Of a DNA stretch of 50,034 nucleotides, positions 2,793 through 13,220 are shown piece by piece. The DNA lies in the NCBI GenBank assembly GCA_013138615.1, contig WTCK01000070.1, positions 1 to 50,034 on the forward strand, written 5' to 3'. The notes under the pieces are model-generated. The model worked only from the letters and a program-made list of their open reading frames with translations. It made no database searches and was not told the DNA's origin. Source of the stretch: Candidatus Thorarchaeota archaeon. Lineage in GTDB: Archaea; Asgardarchaeota; Thorarchaeia; Thorarchaeales; Thorarchaeaceae. The position numbers and the translations under genes are program-made. Position 1 is the first letter of the stretch. The number at the start of each line of letters is the position of its first letter.

Positions 2793-4316
2793 CTATCTAT
2801 CCGCTTTCTTGATTGCTCGAAGCAAGTCGTGCGTGGATCCCCGCGGCTCGAAGTGGCGTTTGCGAACTTTCACGAAAGTGGGGACGGAAACGGTTTCGCC
2901 GACAAATAGAGCCTCTCCAACTTCAAGTGTAGTGATTGTATCCAATGATTGACGGTCAATGCCCTCGCTACTTCGACCAATGTGTTCAAGGTCATAAGGA
3001 TTGGTGCATCGGAGTATCGCTTGATTGGTGCATTGACTCAAAACTGTTGTCGATAGCTTCACCGGGCGTTGTGAAATCAGGCACAACATTGCAAAAAACT
3101 TGCGTCCTTCGCGTGCTATTGTTTCGATTCGTGTCTTTGGAAGTGCAAGTTCATGTCGGCTTTCAGGGCAAAATTGATGAGCTTCCTCGAGAACCAACAA
3201 GAATGGCGGTATCCGCCCTTGTCGTCGCAGGTAAAGAAGCTCGCTAGCAAGATGTGAAACGACAATCTGCTTCTTCTTGAGTGAAACAAAGTCGCTCAAA
3301 TCAATAATGGTAAGCTTGCCGGGCCGGATGATTTCCATTAGGTCTGGCACTGGTTCTCGCCCGAAGAGACCGGTGTCATCAAGACCAACTAACCAGCTCA
3401 CCAACGCCTCACGAGTGTTCTTGCCAATCGTTTCATCTTCCTTCACATGGGTGATGAGTTCTCGAAGAGTATAGCCACTATCTGAACTTGCCCTCATTTC
3501 CGAAACACTCCGTCGCAAATCACGGACCTGAACTGCACTCATATCAGCCACAAGTGATCTCAACGCTTCAGCAGACAGGTTCTGGGCAGGGATTTGGATA
3601 TGTGAAGCACGAATGTGTTCGACCTCAAATTGAGCGTCAGGCACTCTCAAATCGCTTGCTGTTATATCCTTCAAGTACTTGTACTCGCCATGAACATCAA
3701 CGATTACTACAGCTAGGCGACCGTTATCTTTCGTACGTGAGAGTAGCTCCTCAAGAAGCACTGATACGAAGTACGATTTGCCAGCACCACTCATTGCCAA
3801 TATTGCTAGATGCTTCGACAGGAGTCTATCGAGCGATGGGGTGAACTCGAGTTCGTGGTGCCCCAGGTGACCTAGTCTAAGACCGCTTTTCGCATCAAGC
3901 CTCAAGAAGGCAGAAAGTATCGCCGCGTCAACCCTTCGGACCACAGCTCCCGGCGAAACAGTGAAGTATGGTCTGACCGTTCGGTTGCCAGTCCAAAATC
4001 CTAGAACACGTGCTTCTGCAACTGTATACTGCCAACGATCAGTGGGAAATATGGAGCGCAGAGGTTCGCCTCGGGATTGATACTCTCTCACAGCCTCGGC
4101 ATGCTGATAGTAACGATTTGTCTTCACTAGGTTCTGAACTCTTGCGATTATTGTTCCGTTTTCTGTCACAACGGAAACAAACTCCCCTCGTCGAACCACA
4201 ATCTCATTGGGGGCTCCCTCTGTCACAAATGAGAACTCTAGGACATTCGGGCCATCTCCTGTGCAGATGACTGTTCCCAGCCTACTTGATTGATGCTCTT
4301 CTTCCAACACATTCAT
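2793..4316 (-). CDS. herA: HerA-type hexameric DNA translocase/helicase (HAS-barrel plus FtsK/HerA ATPase)
   Basis: 507 aa. The N-terminal region is HAS-barrel-like (GTVICTGDGPNVLEFSFV...GEFVSVVTENGTIIARV). Walker A is HLAILAMSGAGKSY and Walker B is LLVLEEAHQFCPE. Its start overlaps the nurA stop by 4 nt (4313-4316). Confidence 0.85.
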   Translation of the reverse strand: MNVLEEEHQSSRLGTVICTGDGPNVLEFSFVTEGAPNEIVVRRGEFVSVVTENGTIIARVQNLVKTNRYYQHAEAVREYQSRGEPLRSIFPTDRWQYTVAEARVLGFWTGNRTVRPYFTVSPGAVVRRVDAAILSAFLRLDAKSGLRLGHLGHHELEFTPSLDRLLSKHLAILAMSGAGKSYFVSVLLEELLSRTKDNGRLAVVIVDVHGEYKYLKDITASDLRVPDAQFEVEHIRASHIQIPAQNLSAEALRSLVADMSAVQVRDLRRSVSEMRASSDSGYTLRELITHVKEDETIGKNTREALVSWLVGLDDTGLFGREPVPDLMEIIRPGKLTIIDLSDFVSLKKKQIVVSHLASELLYLRRQGRIPPFLLVLEEAHQFCPESRHELALPKTRIETIAREGRKFFAMLCLISQRPVKLSTTVLSQCTNQAILRCTNPYDLEHIGRSSEGIDRQSLDTITTLEVGEALFVGETVSVPTFVKVRKRHFEPRGSTHDLLRAIKKADR

Positions 4317-5476
4317 CCTCCACCAAACGGATTTCTGGATCGCCTTTTTTCAAGAACTGTGTATGTGAGTCCGGATAGTGCCATCAAACGATCTATAATC
4401 AGCTGGGCTTCGTGGCCTGTAATCCGTGCTCGTGCGTCAGCTTCTAGGATTGGAGTAGGAATGCCATACTCAGGATGCTGCCAAGACAGAGGGAGTACCG
4501 CTGAGAGCGCCTTATCCAATTTCTTTGTGTCATTGTCGTCTTGATCCATGAGAACCTCAATCCTCAATGGTAAATCATCTTGGGCCGTCTTGAGATATGT
4601 CACCCAAATCGATGATGACCAAATGGCCAGCTCATCACTCGCCGAGTTTACATTGTGTGTTAGTTCTGACGAGTACCTGAAAGCGAAGGTTCTCTCACCT
4701 GGCTCCATGAAGGTATCAAGGAGACCACAATCCCTCGAAACCTTGAGAAGCCAACGGTAGTCGACATCTTGCATGAGTTCGAAAACAGATGAATCCCGAA
4801 TAATGTGTGGAAGCAACTCACCTAGTACTTGGACCATTCGCGTGGAGCGGCTGTCTTTCACTATGCCGACCAAAGTTGTTTTTTTCTTTCGGGATTTATG
4901 ATAGAGCTGCCTGTAGAGAGCCATGACTTCCTGAAACTTCGCAAACGCAGTCGATCCACGCTGTGGACGGTCTCTCGGATGATAAAAGAGACTTCCGTCG
5001 ACAAGAATCAGATCTGTGTGGAACTCGTCGAGTACGGAGATTGTTGCTTCAAGCTCAATCGCAACCCGTTCAAGAGAGGCTAGTTGGTCAAGTTCAGGAC
5101 TTGGCAGTGCAAGCAGCACAGGTGTGATTCTTGGCTCCGGGAAGGCTTCGGGGTAGAACTCCACATCAGGACCGTCTTCACGTCCGAACTGGAATACGAC
5201 TGCAACGGCGCGAGTGAGGAGAATATCCATTGATCTGAAACGCTTCCGGACCAACCCACCGTCAACCCCAGCAATTCGGAGACCGGAGAGGCTTGTTGGT
5301 TCCAGCTTCTTCAAAAGAGAGGTTTCCATTGTATCAGGTACTAATGCGGGAAACCTCGACAGGTCTATGTGCCCTTTTATCTTCTTCATGACCGCACCGA
5401 ATCTCTTGCGGGTGGTTTCGACCCGGTTTATCTCTTCAACAAGTTTGGATAGAGCGTGGTCGAGCCGTTTGTCCAC
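4313..5476 (-). CDS. nurA: NurA 5'-3' nuclease
   Basis: 387 aa with NurA motifs IAGVDGGL and LILVDGSLFY. It is translationally coupled to herA downstream and abuts pyrG upstream (1-nt overlap at 5476). Confidence 0.8.
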   Translation of the reverse strand: MDKRLDHALSKLVEEINRVETTRKRFGAVMKKIKGHIDLSRFPALVPDTMETSLLKKLEPTSLSGLRIAGVDGGLVRKRFRSMDILLTRAVAVVFQFGREDGPDVEFYPEAFPEPRITPVLLALPSPELDQLASLERVAIELEATISVLDEFHTDLILVDGSLFYHPRDRPQRGSTAFAKFQEVMALYRQLYHKSRKKKTTLVGIVKDSRSTRMVQVLGELLPHIIRDSSVFELMQDVDYRWLLKVSRDCGLLDTFMEPGERTFAFRYSSELTHNVNSASDELAIWSSSIWVTYLKTAQDDLPLRIEVLMDQDDNDTKKLDKALSAVLPLSWQHPEYGIPTPILEADARARITGHEAQLIIDRLMALSGLTYTVLEKRRSRNPFGGG

Positions 5477-7152
5477 TAAGTTTCCCTCTCTCTCTTATAG
5501 TCCAAAGCGGCCCTTATTAGCCCGGAATATAGAGGGTGTGGTGCTCCCGGTTGCGATTTGAATTCAGGATGATATTGTACCCCAATCCAAAAGGGGTGAT
5601 TTGTAAGTTCGATTGCATTGATTATCGTCCCTGTTGAGTCATGCGCCGATACAATCATTCCTTCTTCAGCCATACGATTTACATAACGTGAAATGAGGTG
5701 ATACCTATGCCTGAAGCGTTCTCTAGCTTGAGTTGTACGATATATTTTGTGCAGTTTGGTACCCTCTACGATTCGTACTTCATGACCACATAGCCTCATG
5801 GTCCCTCCCTTGTCTTCGGTGCCTTTTTGATCGTCCATCAAGTCTATTACCGGGTAGAGACAGTTGGGGTCGACCTCTGTTGTATGAGCACCTTCCCAGC
5901 CCATTGTTGTTCTAGCGAAGGCAATGGATCCAAGCTGTGCCCCATAGCAGATGCCTAGGAAGGGAATCTTTGACGTAAATGAAATTGCTGCGGCATTGAT
6001 CATTCCTTCAACCCCACGGGAACCGAATCCTGGTGTGAGAAGAATGCCATCAACTTCACGAAGAGCCTCCGTAAGACTCGCTTCGTCACTGCTTTCTTCA
6101 GTTTCAATCCACTTGATTTGAACGCTGACTCCATACTCCGAGGCTGCGTGCGTCAATGCTTCATTGATGCTCTTGTATGAATCGCTCAGTGTTGTGTATT
6201 TCCCAGGCATGGCGATTACTACGGTTTCCGTGATGTTTTCAAATGACTCCACTATCTTGGTCCATGAGTCGGTTTCCGGAGTTCTTGATTCCATGCCAAG
6301 GTGGTCAGTAATTATATCACCGAGTCCATGTTCCTCAAAATGGAGGGGAAGTCGGTAAATGACAGGGATGTCTGGGTTTGAAATAACTCGTTCTTCTGGC
6401 ACATTACAAAATAGTGCAATCTTCTGCCGCGCAGCGTCAGGCAGCTTTGACTCAGCCCTGCACACAACGATATCCGGCTGCAGACCAAGTCCTTGGAGAG
6501 TCCTCACACTATGCTGAGTGGGTTTTGTTTTGAACTCACCAACTGATGCCAGAAATGGCACCAGAGTCACGTGGACCAAGGCAACTCTGTTTCGGCCAAC
6601 CTCACTAATGAACTGCCTGATTGCTTCTAAGAAGGGCATCGCCTCTATATCACCAACAGTTCCACCAATCTCAACAAGTAGAACGTCCGGGATCGGTTCT
6701 TGGTTGACAACTGCCAGGATTCTTGATTTGATTCTCTCGGTTACGTGCGGAATTATCTGCACAGTTCGCCCCAAGAAAGCCCCTTTCCGCTCCCCCAAGA
6801 TTACTGAAATGTAAATTTGCCCAGAAGTTATATTCTGAAACGGGTGGACCTCAGTCCCAGTAAATCTCTCATAGGTGCCGAAATCTTGGTCGATCTCAGA
6901 TATCTTAAACGTGATGTCATCAACTGGCTTGAATATCCATGTCTGGTCGGTAACGAAGACTTCGCCATGTTCGGTGGGATTGAGTGTGCCCGGGTCAATA
7001 TTGAGGTATGGATCAATCTTGATTATTCGTATTGTGTACCCTCGGAACTGAAATGTCTTAGCAATCGATGCAGTTGTAACGCCTTTCCCGATTCCGGAGA
7101 GCACGCCCCCTGTTACAAACACAAACCGAGTTTCTTTTGGGGCTGACTTCAA
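5476..7152 (-). CDS. pyrG: CTP synthase
   Basis: 558 aa. N-terminal synthetase motif [14 protein letters not shown]-terminal class I glutamine amidotransferase with LGICYGAQ and YHPEF. Only a TTG start is available at 7150-7152. Confidence 0.95.
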
Positions 7153-7277
7153 TGGGACTGCCTCGACTGACTAAGTGCGAAGAGAGGTGGCTGTGCAGAG
7201 CCTTGATAGTGCAGCAGATACCTCGGCTCGTATAAAGTAATCGCTAGAATTGACAACCTGGCGATAATTACAGAAAA

Positions 7278-7904
7278 TTATGGAGTCGCTTGTGCCATGG
7301 CGCTTGTACGCATGGATTGCTGGAACAGAAGTTGGAATGCCTCGATTACATTGAAGCCACTCATGGCTACACTTCTGAATACCGGTATTGATAATGGAAG
7401 ATTAAGATGTTCCCTGAGCCGCTCCTCATTGATTGTATCTGGCAAATCCTGTTTATTGAGACAGACAACAATTGGAAGAGGGCGATCCCCTTCAATAATC
7501 ATGGCCATCAATTCATTCCAACTCTCAAGATTCTCATCAAGCAGATGCTCTTGAGAGTCAGCCACAAACACAACACCATCTGCGCCAACCAAAACAACCT
7601 CACGTGTTGATCTGTAGAAGTCCTGACCAGTTGCAGACCAGATATGTGCATTAATTCTCCAGCTGTCACTCAGATTGCAGGGAATTGTTCCGAAATCGCA
7701 GAACATGGTTCTACCCAGCGTGTTCTCTATCGATGTGAGCTTCTCTGTAATGCCTAGCTCCGAAAAAAGCCATCTGATTGTTGTGGTCTTTCCACTCATG
7801 GCTGGTCCGAAAAATACTATTTTGAGCCCAATCGTTCGGTTGCCATAATCTATGATCAAATGACTACCCTCCCACTCTATGTTCCCCACATGCTGTCTAC
7901 CCAA
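7278..7904 (-). CDS. MglA-like small Ras-superfamily GTPase
   Basis: 208 aa. G1 is KIVFFGPAMSGKTT. G3 is WSATGQDFY, which lacks the usual Asp as MglA TVPGQ does. The ADGVVFVADSQ segment and G4 LNKQDL closely track Myxococcus MglA (KIVYYGPGLCGKTT / TVPGQVFY / VDGVVFVADSQ / NKRDL, from memory). Last gene of a three-gene operon. Confidence 0.8.
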   Translation of the reverse strand: MGRQHVGNIEWEGSHLIIDYGNRTIGLKIVFFGPAMSGKTTTIRWLFSELGITEKLTSIENTLGRTMFCDFGTIPCNLSDSWRINAHIWSATGQDFYRSTREVVLVGADGVVFVADSQEHLLDENLESWNELMAMIIEGDRPLPIVVCLNKQDLPDTINEERLREHLNLPLSIPVFRSVAMSGFNVIEAFQLLFQQSMRTSAMAQATP

Positions 7905-8797
7905 GCACCCAAGCCTGAGAGCGCGCCACTCTTGACACAGTCAGAAAAATCTTCGTGCCACTCGGCTCGCATGAACCGTATCAGGTCTGGAAGCTGTCCG
8001 CCGTCCCACCCTATCGCCTCATACAGGTTTCGTGCAGTCAAAGCGGCAGGTGCGCCCAGTTCTCTAGCAAGACGTATCCTTGATAGAAGGGTCACTGCCC
8101 GTCTAGCTGCGTGAACATAGCTGTCTATTTCCTCATCAAACACATCGTGTGTGAGCTTCTCAGCCTCATCGTCGAGCTTCATGACGGAGGTTATGATATG
8201 CTCCGACACATTGAGCCCGCGAAGGGATTTCTTAAGAAGACGCCTGATTCGCTCCAGCGACTGACGCTTTCGTGTGATTATCTTGTCTACGATGCGCTTC
8301 TCGAGGTCTAGACTTCCAGCACTTGGCTGCACAAGCGAGAATCTAATAGATGATGGTGAATCCACTCGAAGTATTCCGCAGTTCTCGGAACTCTGTAGAA
8401 AACGAATGACTGCATCCTGCAATGTTTCTTCAGTCACGTGTACGCCGAGGACAGTTGCACCAAGAGGCATAGCAATAATCCAGCCCGAGAAGCGACTGAT
8501 GCGGTCCAAAGCCAATCTCAGATTGGCTGAAAGGCAGCAGACAATGGTTCTGCTTACTTCATAGTTATGTTTCTCCTCCTCCCACACTGATAGAATCTCT
8601 CCCTCTGATGTGAAATCGCGCCAAAACACAATCTTATGGCGATGAGAGCAGAGCATTGGAATGCTGTTAGCAATGTCATCCACTAACTCGATGTCCTCCC
8701 CAGCTACAATGATTGGAAAACGAGAAAGCACTGCATTCAATAGAAGTGGGAACTCGTCACCCATCATCTCAATCATTCTCATTATGGAATATGTCAT
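7877..8797 (-). CDS. Hypothetical protein, middle gene of the Roadblock-GTPase operon
   Basis: 306-aa ORF. It overlaps the upstream gene by 4 nt (8794-8797) and the GTPase gene by 28 nt, implying co-translation. I recognise no family. The N-terminal PIIVAGEDIELVDDIANSI loosely resembles a degenerate beta1/P-loop region. Confidence 0.6.
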   Translation of the reverse strand: MTYSIMRMIEMMGDEFPLLLNAVLSRFPIIVAGEDIELVDDIANSIPMLCSHRHKIVFWRDFTSEGEILSVWEEEKHNYEVSRTIVCCLSANLRLALDRISRFSGWIIAMPLGATVLGVHVTEETLQDAVIRFLQSSENCGILRVDSPSSIRFSLVQPSAGSLDLEKRIVDKIITRKRQSLERIRRLLKKSLRGLNVSEHIITSVMKLDDEAEKLTHDVFDEEIDSYVHAARRAVTLLSRIRLARELGAPAALTARNLYEAIGWDGGQLPDLIRFMRAEWHEDFSDCVKSGALSGLGAWVDSMWGT

Positions 8798-9741
8798 GGT
8801 TCTCGCCTCGTGAGAAGTAGACTCTCTGTGGAGCCGCTGGACATCAGCAGCTCCTTCAAATCATCAGGAATTGCAGGTTTCATCATTGATGCTGATTCCA
8901 GTATCCGTCGGGTTTCGTCGATATAGTACTTCAATAGGAGTCTCATAAGACCAAGTTTCTGACTGTTACGATCCACCCAAAGGCTGAAGACACCATTCGG
9001 AACTGAGTAGATTACGTGGCGTGTGCGTTCGGTTTCGCACAACACAGTTTGAAGTGAGCTGTTGCGGAGGGTACGGGTTACTCGCTCGGATGCATCGTAT
9101 AGAGCGAAAGACATTGCTGCAAGTCGATCATTTGCGAATGCATCTAGCGAAACGCGAACTCCACCACTTAAGGCTAAGAAGACTGATTCGATATCTGGAA
9201 TGCTATCATGAACCTGTCGCAGAATGGTTCTGAGAGCAAGAGCCTGAGACCGATTCAATGACATTATTGACCGTGAAATGGAATATGTTGCTTGACTACC
9301 TTCAGCTACTGCGAATCTGCTCAGCACCTGCTGTGTTTCGCCCATGTTATACGAGCGGAGTGGCGGAAGTATGCCATCCAAATGCTGTCTCAAAAGGAAG
9401 GATATGCGCGAAAGACTATCCTTCATCTCGATGAATAGGGCTGCAAGGTTGACTCTTGGTGCGGTGGTGATAGCTAAGAAGTAGTCAGGGTCATTCGGGA
9501 GTGATGCCAAGAAGATTTTCGAGGTTTCAGATTCCATTAGAAGATACTTGAAATCCCCATGAATTAGTTTCGCCACGCCAAATATTGCGCAGGTGGATGA
9601 TGCAACCGCAAACACCTCCTCCTTGCTGAACCATACTCCTGCACTAGCAACCGGAAGACCGTCCTTCTGGATCATAACAACATTTTCGACGCCAGATATT
9701 ACCTTGATTGCTTGCAGTGCATCATTGAGGTCGTTGGTCAA
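8794..9741 (-). CDS. Tandem Roadblock/LC7 (MglB-like) domain protein
   Basis: 315 aa. The first domain is ALQAIKVISGVENVVMIQKDGLPVASAG...SKIFLASLPNDPDYFLAITTAPRVNLAALFIEM. The second is LRQVHDSIPDIESVFLALSGGVRVS...HVIYSVPNGVFSLWVDRNSQKLGLMRLLL. Both fit the Roadblock/LC7 pattern (G..ga.l...DGl.va). Confidence 0.75.
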   Translation of the reverse strand: MTNDLNDALQAIKVISGVENVVMIQKDGLPVASAGVWFSKEEVFAVASSTCAIFGVAKLIHGDFKYLLMESETSKIFLASLPNDPDYFLAITTAPRVNLAALFIEMKDSLSRISFLLRQHLDGILPPLRSYNMGETQQVLSRFAVAEGSQATYSISRSIMSLNRSQALALRTILRQVHDSIPDIESVFLALSGGVRVSLDAFANDRLAAMSFALYDASERVTRTLRNSSLQTVLCETERTRHVIYSVPNGVFSLWVDRNSQKLGLMRLLLKYYIDETRRILESASMMKPAIPDDLKELLMSSGSTESLLLTRREP

Positions 9742-10213
9742 GTGTTCAGCTCCAGAGCGGATACTAGATTCAATGTAGAATCCGTGAGGACACTATTTAA
9801 CCTCCACATAGGTTGCACATCATCCAAGGTGAAGCACAAGACTCCAGCTAACTCGTTAGGGGCAATCAGTCAAGCGATTTCTTGTCTGTGTGCAATTCTT
9901 TGTTATGCAAGATGATTGCATAGGGAATGCAACAGCTGCCAAAAACTTGTACAATCTTGGATGTTTTGTAGGTGCTTATAACATACTGCTCAGGATTGAG
10001 CGGTGTGGACGTTCAATGCTGATTGCTAGAACGTGCATGAAATTTGGTCGCCGCCAGTTGGACGGAGACAGAAAACGCCTGTGGAGAGGACGTAAGACTT
10101 GTCGCATATTCAGTAGGATCTGCAGAGCAGACCTCAATGAATCAGGAACCGAACATCAGTCAAGGACGTTAATGTCCAGGATTGTACAAGTTTCGGGCAA
10201 CGGAATACCCAAG

Positions 10214-12371: not shown

Positions 12372-12437
12372 ACAGAGTGTTCTCGCTTCTTGTAAGTGGT
12401 ACCGAAGAACTCAAAGCGCGCTAGGAGTCACACGGAG

Positions 12438-13220
12438 ATGAGTCCACAAATGTTCTTCACATTTCTAGTTGGCACTGCAGGCTCTGGCAAGTCACTACTC
12501 ACCGCATCACTGGAGAAATGGTTGCTTGCCTCTGAGATGAGTGTGACAATAGTAAATCTTGACCCGGGTGTAGAAGAGCCGCCATACACGAGTGATGTTG
12601 ATATTAGAGAGTATGTAGACTATGGCGAAGTCATGCATCAGTTTGGTCTTGGACCAAATGGTGCCTTGGTCGCATCATTAGATATGGCAGTCAGTCACGT
12701 CAATGATTTGAGAGAGGAAATACTGGATACAGGCAGGGACTACGTATTGGTGGACTGCCCGGGGCAGATGGAGCTCTTCGCATATCGCAACTCCGGACCA
12801 ATGTTGGTGTCGAGCCTTAGTGGCAAAGACCCAGCCATTTCGCTATATCTCCTTGATTCAAACATTGCTCGAACTCCCACAGGGTACCTGTCATCAATGC
12901 TGCTTGGAATGTCAATCAACATCCGCTTTGGATTGCCTCAATTGAATGTACTGAGCAAACCAGACATACTGACAGAAGAACAAGTAGACCAGATAGTTGA
13001 GTGGGCAGAAGAACCCCATATCCTAAATGATGCTCTCAACTTATCGGCGAGCGGTCTAGCTCGTGAGTATTCTGGGTCGATACTAAGGATGATGGAGGAC
13101 TTGGGAGGCGTGACACGTATGGTGCCTGTGTCAGCTAAGGAGATGACTGGCATTGAAACCCTTTACGGAGAACTTCAGCGGGTGTTTGCAGGCGGGGAGG
13201 ACTACGTAACATATGAGTAG
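12438..13220 (+). CDS. GPN-loop GTPase (Npa3/XAB1/PAB0955 family)
   Basis: P-loop VGTAGSGKS, the eponymous GLGPNGA motif, VDCPGQMELF and LSKPDIL. The maximal ORF starts at GTG 12396. I prefer ATG 12438 (MSPQMFFTFLVG), which leaves room for the divergent promoter. Confidence 0.85.
   Translation: MSPQMFFTFLVGTAGSGKSLLTASLEKWLLASEMSVTIVNLDPGVEEPPYTSDVDIREYVDYGEVMHQFGLGPNGALVASLDMAVSHVNDLREEILDTGRDYVLVDCPGQMELFAYRNSGPMLVSSLSGKDPAISLYLLDSNIARTPTGYLSSMLLGMSINIRFGLPQLNVLSKPDILTEEQVDQIVEWAEEPHILNDALNLSASGLAREYSGSILRMMEDLGGVTRMVPVSAKEMTGIETLYGELQRVFAGGEDYVTYE

Follow-up and report, generated by a model that had tools for sequence, protein, structure and literature searches.

This report concerns a three-gene operon on the minus strand of a 50,034-nt stretch of DNA from Candidatus Thorarchaeota archaeon (GenBank assembly GCA_013138615.1, contig WTCK01000070.1, positions 1 to 50,034); the whole of this archaeal stretch, of about 47 % G+C, is referred to below as the window. 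The genes, designated A, B and C in their order of transcription, encode a tandem Roadblock/LC7 protein, a protein predicted to adopt a folliculin-type DENN fold without a longin domain, and a small GTPase which by its sequence is of the MglA type (Table 1). Close homologues of the window proteins come from Candidatus Thorarchaeota metagenome-assembled genomes (MAGs), and the nearest related locus (L007, Thorarchaeota CSMAG_3034) encodes proteins of 97–98 % identity.

Three co-directional open reading frames (ORFs), 9741..8794, 8797..7877 and 7904..7278, the last in its longest form, make up the locus. Gene A ends and gene B begins within the tetranucleotide ATGA at 8794–8797, and this 4-nt overlap, already reported in an earlier sequence-only reading of the DNA, is kept in 58 of 67 homologous loci. 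The second overlap of that reading, one of 28 nt between B and C, proved to be an artefact of taking the longest ORF. In a GTPase-anchored scan of GTDB species genomes, from which the best 80 of 575 relatives were kept and annotated with hidden Markov models (HMMs) and phmmer, every one of the 80 related loci has a start codon (ATG, GTG or TTG) at the equivalent of window position 7859. Of the 69 loci with B, 68 have the GTPase start 1–20 nt past the B stop and one has it 25 nt past; a GGAGG-like motif usually precedes this start, with an equivalent spacer in most of the 80. A longer ORF is impossible in several loci, where a stop codon closes the GTPase frame upstream of this start. A start of C at 7904 is ruled out by this comparison. 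The resulting 193-aa form begins with MIIDYGNRTIGLK, which mirrors the MglA N-terminus MSFINYSSREINCK.

Table 1. Genes, domains, motifs and upstream elements of the operon (positions are those of the window)
Feature	Position	Strand	Remarks
Gene A, tandem Roadblock/LC7 (MglB/LAMTOR-like)	8794..9741	-	315 aa, TTG start
A, Roadblock domain 1 (residues 1–119)	9385..9741	-	Most conserved part of A; AlphaFold2 (AF2) model and 7f8m match
A, inter-domain linker (residues 120–163)	9253..9384	-	Invariant PPL (126–128), one short helix; predicted local distance difference test score (pLDDT) <50 at 146–157
A, Roadblock domain 2 (residues 164–285)	8887..9252	-	Conserved KLGLxR; AF2 model and PDB match
Gene B, predicted DENN fold (core DENN + d-DENN, no longin)	7877..8797	-	306 aa, ATG start
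B, core-DENN-like alpha/beta domain (residues 1–155)	8333..8797	-	AF2 model; co-linear Pfam matches in homologues
B, all-helical d-DENN-like domain (residues 164–303)	7889..8308	-	Low-confidence GDxxxxLWG-type tail; AF2 model and alignment
B–C spacer with Shine–Dalgarno-like GGGAGG	7860..7876	-	17 nt, reads AGTGGGAGGGTAGTCAT
Gene C, MglA-family (group-1-like) small GTPase	7278..7859	-	193 aa, TTG start at 7859
C, P-loop GPAMSGKTT (residues 18–26)	7782..7808	-	Invariant in operon GTPases
C, switch I R50-T51 (Arg beside G2 Thr, as in group 1 MglA)	7707..7712	-	Alignment to 'RT' of MglA
C, G3 motif SATGQ (residues 75–79; Asp absent, Gln kept)	7623..7637	-	Alignment
C, G4 motif NKQD (residues 135–138)	7446..7457	-	Alignment
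Putative archaeal promoter: purine-rich, B-recognition-element (BRE)-like TGTGGAGG and TATA box TTAAATA (9800–9794)	9792..9808	-	Sequence and conservation
Conserved GGATTCTACATTGAA element between TATA box and A start	9768..9782	-	Fixed distance in about 60 Thorarchaeota loci

For C, the Pfam matches are to generic small-GTPase families only (Arf, Roc and Ras, with Gtr1/RagA weakly). Among PDB sequences (phmmer) its four best matches are all MglA, from Thermus thermophilus and Myxococcus xanthus (E 1.5e-30, 109 bits), and the next family, Arf, follows at E 7e-9, a gap of 22 orders of magnitude. In BLASTP, C is 35 % identical to M. xanthus MglA (E 3e-38) over its full length, the G1–G2 region included and with small gaps only. 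The hallmarks of group 1 MglA proteins are an intrinsic arginine next to the G2 threonine and the G3 motif TVPGQ, from which the aspartate is missing (Wuichet and Sogaard-Andersen, PMC4316618). In C, G-R50-T51 aligns with the E/D-R-T of MglA, and the G3 motif is a variant, not the canonical TVPGQ, with Ser, Ala and Thr in place of Thr, Val and Pro. R50-T51, D55, SATGQ and the P-loop are invariant in the operon GTPases of distant Asgard lineages, and the tandem Roadblock gene A belongs to the same operon as the GTPase in 74 of the 80 loci, with or without B. Judged by these sequence features, C is an MglA-type, group-1-like GTPase, and its close likeness to MglA, the loss of the G3 aspartate of DxxGQ included, had been recognized correctly in the sequence-only reading. 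'MglA1' is already among the GTPase groups listed for Asgard archaea. No paralogue of C, and no Rag- or Rab-like gene, was found within the 50-kb window.

Protein A is matched in two stretches by Pfam Robl_LC7 (PF03259; E 8e-8, 32.3 bits against a cut-off of 23), and in phmmer searches of the PDB its residues 3–108 match the Thorarchaeota Roadblock protein 7f8m and residues 171–279 the MK-D1 Roadblock protein 9jue. The AF2 model of A, built on a 25-sequence alignment of homologues from the protein search (pLDDT 79.5, predicted TM-score (pTM) 0.77), comprises two alpha-beta-beta-alpha-beta-beta-beta-alpha units (residues 1–119 and 164–285), both of Roadblock and not longin topology. Foldseek aligns A with single Roadblock chains at target-normalized TM-scores (TMt) of 0.75–0.86, among them LAMTOR2, MP1/p14, Asgard Roadblocks, a Streptomyces Roadblock and MglB, and homologues of A carry source annotations such as 'roadblock/LC7 domain-containing protein' or 'predicted regulator of Ras-like GTPase activity (Roadblock/LC7/MglB family)'. 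Q25, D27, G28, P30, G35, W37, S39, E42 and F44 are invariant in domain 1. Two Roadblock domains in one chain had been read from the sequence and are borne out by the Pfam stretches, the PDB matches of both halves and the modelled units; the built-in pseudo-dimer proposed with them holds at the domain level, as a tandem Roadblock, and the pairing of the two domains is a prediction, to which the pTM of 0.77 lends some weight in that it suggests a defined arrangement. The tail of A consists of a disordered stretch followed by a conserved short amphipathic helix (DDLKELL), which recalls the regulatory helix at the C-terminus of MglB.

Protein B has no Pfam or NCBIfam match above threshold, and HMM profiles of close and of diverse B homologues found only spurious helical matches (Rip1 and ferritin, for example) among PDB sequences. 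The sequence-only verdict of 'no recognisable family' is therefore correct at sequence thresholds, but it does not extend to the fold. The AF2 model of B, made from a diverse alignment (pLDDT 92, pTM 0.87), shows an alpha/beta domain, with strands at residues 29–33, 54–58, 84–88, 106–111, 141–147 and 150–155, followed by an all-helical domain. In a Foldseek search of the PDB the top match is the C-terminal DENN domain of folliculin (FLCN; 3v42_B, probability 1.0, TMt 0.54); further matches are to FLCN in its lysosomal and active complexes (6nzd_H and 8dhb_J, probability 1.0), and the alignments to FLCN chains span 286–291 columns. DENND10 (8p0v_M), SMCR8/C9orf72 (7mge_C, 7o2w_A) and DENND1A/B (6ekk, 3tw8) are the other DENN-fold matches, the best DENN matches having probabilities of 0.8–1.0. 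Sub-threshold, co-linear Pfam matches, obtained independently in three B homologues and falling on the N-terminal motif, point to the same families: Folliculin_C positions 4–62 (E 4.8e-4) and 6–55 (E 0.015), and DENN positions 90–132 (E 0.093). The best of these homologues scores 20.2 bits against a gathering cut-off of 27, and the B protein of the window itself has no DENN or Folliculin_C match. B opens directly with the core-DENN helix and strand; its chain has no longin (uDENN) domain at the N-terminus, and the operon's only longin-related domains are the Roadblock pair of A, a separate protein. As modelled, B is a core DENN plus d-DENN protein of the folliculin type that lacks the longin domain.

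The B family is small: it amounts to 65 clusters (50 % identity) in a set of 1.84 billion representatives, its proteins nearly all being of about 300 aa, and those members that are named by source are all Asgard (Thor, Hod, Odin, Asgardarchaeia or Promethearchaeota); a profile search with the diverse B alignment of a set of 5.8 billion proteins returned only near-duplicates from Thorarchaeota. Within Thorarchaeota B and the GTPase are conserved alike (about 75 % and 73 % identity, respectively), and across the Thor, Odin, Baldr and Loki-type lineages the identity of B falls to 19–32 %. R26, P28 and R53 are invariant throughout the family, within the pattern R-x-P-I-x-V-x-G ... L-x-P-x-R ... 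F-x-x-D-F. No fusion of the DENN domain to a Roadblock domain or a GTPase was found within the B family, in which P0131 carries a low-complexity insert only. The extreme C-terminus of B (SGLGAWVDSMWG, of the form GDxxxxLWG; 7880–7916, residues ~294–305) is invariant in Thorarchaeota and modelled at a pLDDT of about 50; possibly it serves as a short linear motif for interactions. In one Thorarchaeota MAG (L055:2942–3977) the DENN-like gene is split by a frameshift into two overlapping ORFs, either as a pseudogene or through an assembly error.

The order A-B-C is found in 67 of the 80 loci (Thorarchaeota, Odin L078, Baldr L082, Promethearchaeia L084, L074 and L086), and two more have B-C at a contig end that cuts the locus, so that B lies directly upstream of the GTPase gene in 69. 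This agrees with the sequence-only reading, which had postulated a conserved third partner. Linkage of the three genes spans Thor, Odin, Baldr and Loki-type lineages, and among distant B homologues the order A-B-C is kept on metagenome contig L002, while contigs L005 and L006 have a 120-aa ORF, then B, then C. Seven Hermodarchaeota-type loci (L072, L073, L075–77, L079 and L080; several of the MAGs are labelled Hermodarchaeota) have A and C without B, the tandem-Roadblock gene standing directly before the MglA-like GTPase gene (for example L075:3025–3993 and 4001–4567). In four loci the GTPase gene stands alone, as a second Thorarchaeota paralogue in L067, L068 and L070, and in L085. The trio is thus strongly, but not universally, linked; the constant presence of the middle gene in syntenic loci, on which the sequence-only reading had staked its case, is in part broken by the Hermod-type ones. 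Since those loci keep A and C without B, we take A and C to be the core pair and B an accessory regulator.

Several of the related loci have features of their own. In L005 (1–5640; Asgardarchaeia-type) the operon directly follows a cluster of ribosomal-protein, SecY, adenylate kinase, methionine aminopeptidase and eIF-1A genes, and the 120-aa ORF, which has no Pfam match, takes the place of the ~315-aa tandem Roadblock gene before the DENN-like gene. The most divergent DENN-like members are adjacent paralogue pairs, L003:5052–5966 with 6001–6936 (Promethearchaeota MAG GCA_054681365.1) and L004:1126–2052 with 2055–2744 (a metagenome contig), alongside which there is no GTPase or Roadblock gene; by analogy they are reminiscent of the DENN–DENN pair of FLCN/FNIP. 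L075 also encodes a single 120-aa Roadblock protein (22–384) and, downstream of the operon genes, two Ras/Rab-like GTPases with DxxGQ motifs (6022–6573 and 6771–7298). The solo GTPase paralogues of some Thorarchaeota (for example isolates TM1S.149 and AMARA_8; L067:4001–4561, L068 and L070) are of 60–64 % identity and have no Roadblock or DENN neighbours; the one in L067 follows two large ORFs that by eye are NurA-like and HerA-like. One A-B-C locus (L083, CAZWON010000051.1) is binned as 'uncultured Planctomycetia bacterium'. A bacterial origin was rejected, as its A-B-C genes and upstream sequence match those of Baldr L082, with which it shares 20 identical nt upstream of the start of the GTPase gene, and Odin L078 has the same architecture; L083 is probably a mis-binned Asgard contig.

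About 53–59 nt upstream of the A start lies a putative promoter with the window sequence TGTGGAGGTTAAATAGT (9808–9792), and the motif CTGTGTGG(A/T)G(A/G)TTA(A/T)ATAGT is kept at about –59 in about 60 Thorarchaeota loci. From their sequence, this block and the conserved element downstream of it are likely to represent a BRE/TATA promoter and a transcription-start or 5' untranslated region, respectively. Together with the A/B overlap, the spacer with its ribosome-binding site and a T-rich stretch after the C stop, the promoter-like element argues for A-B-C being one transcription unit. The gap upstream of A is non-coding over about 470 bp (9742–10213), of which the promoter-like element accounts for the proximal 9768–9808 only; the rest has no Rfam match and contains only short, probably spurious ORFs. 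Over the whole window Rfam finds two distant tRNAs and nothing else. The neighbours of the operon are housekeeping genes: upstream, those for an HD phosphohydrolase, an HTH protein, a GPN-loop GTPase and a methyltransferase, and downstream, those for CTP synthase, NurA (4313–5476) and HerA (2793–4316), the last two just past CTP synthase. The GPN-loop GTPase gene (12396–13220; Pfam ATP_bind_1, E 3e-61), on the opposite strand 2.6 kb upstream, is unrelated to the operon.

An operon of a Roadblock protein, a small GTPase and a DENN protein, conserved in most Asgard archaea, has been described as a comparative-genomics prediction (Liu et al., bioRxiv 10.1101/2020.10.19.343400, Fig. 5b). By that published description, and not by accessions, the locus reported here is its Thorarchaeota copy, and the operon itself is thus already known. 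As described there, its GTPase is distinct from Rag, and an FLCN-like guanine nucleotide exchange factor (GEF) role was proposed for the module (Liu et al., 10.1101/2020.10.19.343400). DENN domains are among the known Asgard homologues (later paper), and Asgard Roadblock structures have been solved in a study which mentions MglA-like GTPases and not the A-B-C operon (Tran et al. 2024). Our literature search turned up no experimental study of the A-B-C module.

Our current working hypothesis, to which we assign a probability of about 0.6, is that the operon encodes a self-contained GTPase switch in which A and C form the core, A acting on C as a pseudo-dimer, and B is a docked regulator. A would fold as an intramolecular MglB-like pseudo-dimer, bind one molecule of GTP-loaded C and promote hydrolysis by positioning Arg50 and Gln79 of C itself, as MglB does with MglA. 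B would dock on A, the Roadblock pair and the DENN protein rebuilding in separate polypeptides a longin–DENN–dDENN module like that of eukaryotic DENN proteins and of the FLCN–FNIP and C9orf72–SMCR8 complexes, and would tune the cycle, through nucleotide exchange or by stabilizing one nucleotide state, or else couple the cycle to a target. The sequence-only reading had also suggested a switch here, of a polarity or trafficking type, with the middle protein as its effector. The MglA/Roadblock pair and the conserved partner agree with that proposal; the effector role seems to us less likely than that of a co-regulator, because DENN domains are parts of GTPase regulators (GEFs or GTPase-activating protein (GAP) complexes).

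Several observations weigh against this hypothesis. The catalytic arginine of the eukaryotic FLCN and SMCR8 GAP complexes lies in the longin and not in the DENN domain, so that the role of B may be that of a GEF, a scaffold or an effector. The contacts between A and B, A and C, and B and C are all predicted from homology and gene order. With B missing in the seven Hermod-type loci and the GTPase alone in four, the trio is not obligatory. As to the DENN fold, the Foldseek E-values of B are modest (3e-3) and the query-normalized TM-scores just 0.38–0.41, and the Pfam matches of the family lie below the gathering thresholds and cover about 55 residues. Finally, the operon GTPase is called 'Rab-like' in the published description, where it is suggested that the module's action may be on other GTPases, Rab or Rag (Liu et al., 10.1101/2020.10.19.343400).

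This last point leads to an alternative that in essence follows what Liu et al. propose in their preprint: A and B would serve in trans as a folliculin/Ragulator-like GEF or GAP platform whose main clients would be Asgard GTPases other than C, Rag/Gtr-like or Ras/Rab-like ones, with C itself as one component only or an anchor. That the best structural match of B is FLCN, a subunit of a GAP for RagC/D, that A also resembles LAMTOR2 and MP1/p14, and that extra Ras/Rab-like genes lie near Hermod-type loci all speak for it. We nevertheless consider it unlikely, as the tightly coupled GTPase is of the MglA type and co-evolves in the operon, gene coupling of Roadblock and MglA normally denotes a cognate pair (PMC4316618), and the window contains no Rag- or Rab-like gene. 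A slightly less probable arrangement again is that B is the output of the switch, with A as the GAP and GTP-bound C recruiting or activating B towards a target that could be a membrane or the cytoskeleton. The conservation of B on a par with the GTPase within Thorarchaeota, its strongly conserved C-terminal peptide, which is suited to partner binding, and its dispensability where A and C occur alone would fit such a role, and against them stand the lack in B of any additional domain for an output and the fact that the characterized DENN-fold proteins are all parts of GTPase regulators and not downstream enzymes (general knowledge; PMC3521125).

A quite different view, in which B would be a pseudo-GTPase or some other degenerate P-loop NTPase, had been raised as a speculation in the sequence-only reading from the N-terminus of B, and the Rossmann-like alpha/beta N-terminal domain and the presence of AAA+, VirB11 and PilT ATPases lower in the Foldseek list could be cited in its favour. 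We rejected it and regard it as highly improbable: the family consensus has no Walker A motif (GxxxxGK[ST]), the P-loop ATPases match with probabilities of 0.1–0.7 and TM-scores of 0.2–0.29, against probabilities of 0.8–1.0 for the best DENN proteins, and the only co-linear Pfam matches are those to Folliculin_C and DENN. The structure prediction that the same reading had recommended for the 306-aa protein returned the DENN fold described above, not a G-domain.

Among known systems, the operon can be set beside the bacterial MglA–MglB polarity switch of M. xanthus and T. thermophilus. C shares with MglA, besides its overall identity, the arginine beside the G2 threonine, the catalytic glutamine and the Asp-less G3 motif; the GTPase is encoded beside a Roadblock protein in both, and, as an MglB dimer acts on one MglA, the fused tandem Roadblock protein A would mimic that dimer. 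In contrast to the MglB homodimer, A is one chain with two diverged domains, the G3 motif is SATGQ rather than TVPGQ, a DENN gene stands between the Roadblock and GTPase genes, there is no RomR/RomX or MglC, and the host is an archaeon without known gliding motility. With the eukaryotic DENN regulators, FLCN–FNIP (a GAP for RagC/D), C9orf72–SMCR8 (a GAP for Arf/Rab), DENND1 (a GEF for Rab35) and DENND10, the operon has in common the predicted succession of core-DENN alpha/beta and helical d-DENN domains in B and the genetic pairing of the DENN protein with a longin-related (Roadblock) pair and a small GTPase. In eukaryotes, however, longin and DENN domains form one polypeptide, usually in longin–DENN heterodimers, whereas here the Roadblock pair and the DENN domain are separate proteins, the platform is of Roadblock and not longin topology, the proposed client is of the MglA type and not Rab, Rag or Arf, and the similarity lies below Pfam thresholds. 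The domains of A also superpose on LAMTOR2 and MP1/p14 (TMt ~0.8), and Ragulator (LAMTOR2/3 and LAMTOR4/5) and the C-terminal Roadblock dimers of the Rag GTPases likewise use paired Roadblock domains as GTPase platforms; unlike those systems, the operon has no LAMTOR1-like wrapping subunit and no Rag GTPase with a C-terminal Roadblock domain of its own, and its pair is a single chain. The operon of Liu et al. corresponds in its Roadblock-superfamily protein, DENN protein and non-Rag small GTPase, in its spread across most Asgard lineages and in being experimentally uncharacterized. It differs in that its GTPase is there termed 'Rab-like', whereas C is clearly MglA-type (group-1-like) by sequence, and the text that describes it is silent on the fused tandem Roadblock, the longin-less DENN and the DENN-less Hermod-type loci.

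In eukaryotes, membrane traffic and mTORC1 signalling are under the control of small-GTPase regulators of the DENN, longin and Roadblock kinds, the origin of which bears on eukaryogenesis. The DENN module's longin domain has been derived from MglB-like Roadblocks (Zhang et al. 2012, PMC3521125). At this locus separate, translationally coupled genes link the prokaryotic MglA–MglB switch with a fused pair of Roadblock domains and with a DENN domain, an arrangement that would be expected of a longin–DENN precursor in the scenario of Zhang et al. (2012). It is tempting to speculate, and we do so tentatively, thinking the idea possible rather than probable, that in this operon the DENN module of eukaryotes is still to be seen in its ancestral, unfused state. 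DENN would have arisen in Asgard archaea as an accessory, possibly a GEF, of an MglA–MglB switch, where it would have worked with a fused Roadblock pseudo-dimer on a GTPase of the MglA type, and the longin–DENN regulators (FLCN/FNIP, C9orf72/SMCR8 and the DENND proteins) would have followed once a domain derived from Roadblock had been fused to DENN and the module redirected to Rab, Rag or Arf. What the present analysis adds to the known operon is an MglA-type and not 'Rab-like' GTPase, a tandem Roadblock protein that is a predicted pseudo-dimer, a DENN protein without a longin domain, and the Hermod-type loci from which DENN is absent. If the proposed scenario is true, a single operon would encode a complete cycle of GAP, GEF and GTPase that can be reconstituted in vitro; the A-B-C system, small and soluble-looking, is suited both to such reconstitution and to the question of how the eukaryotic DENN and longin domains originated.

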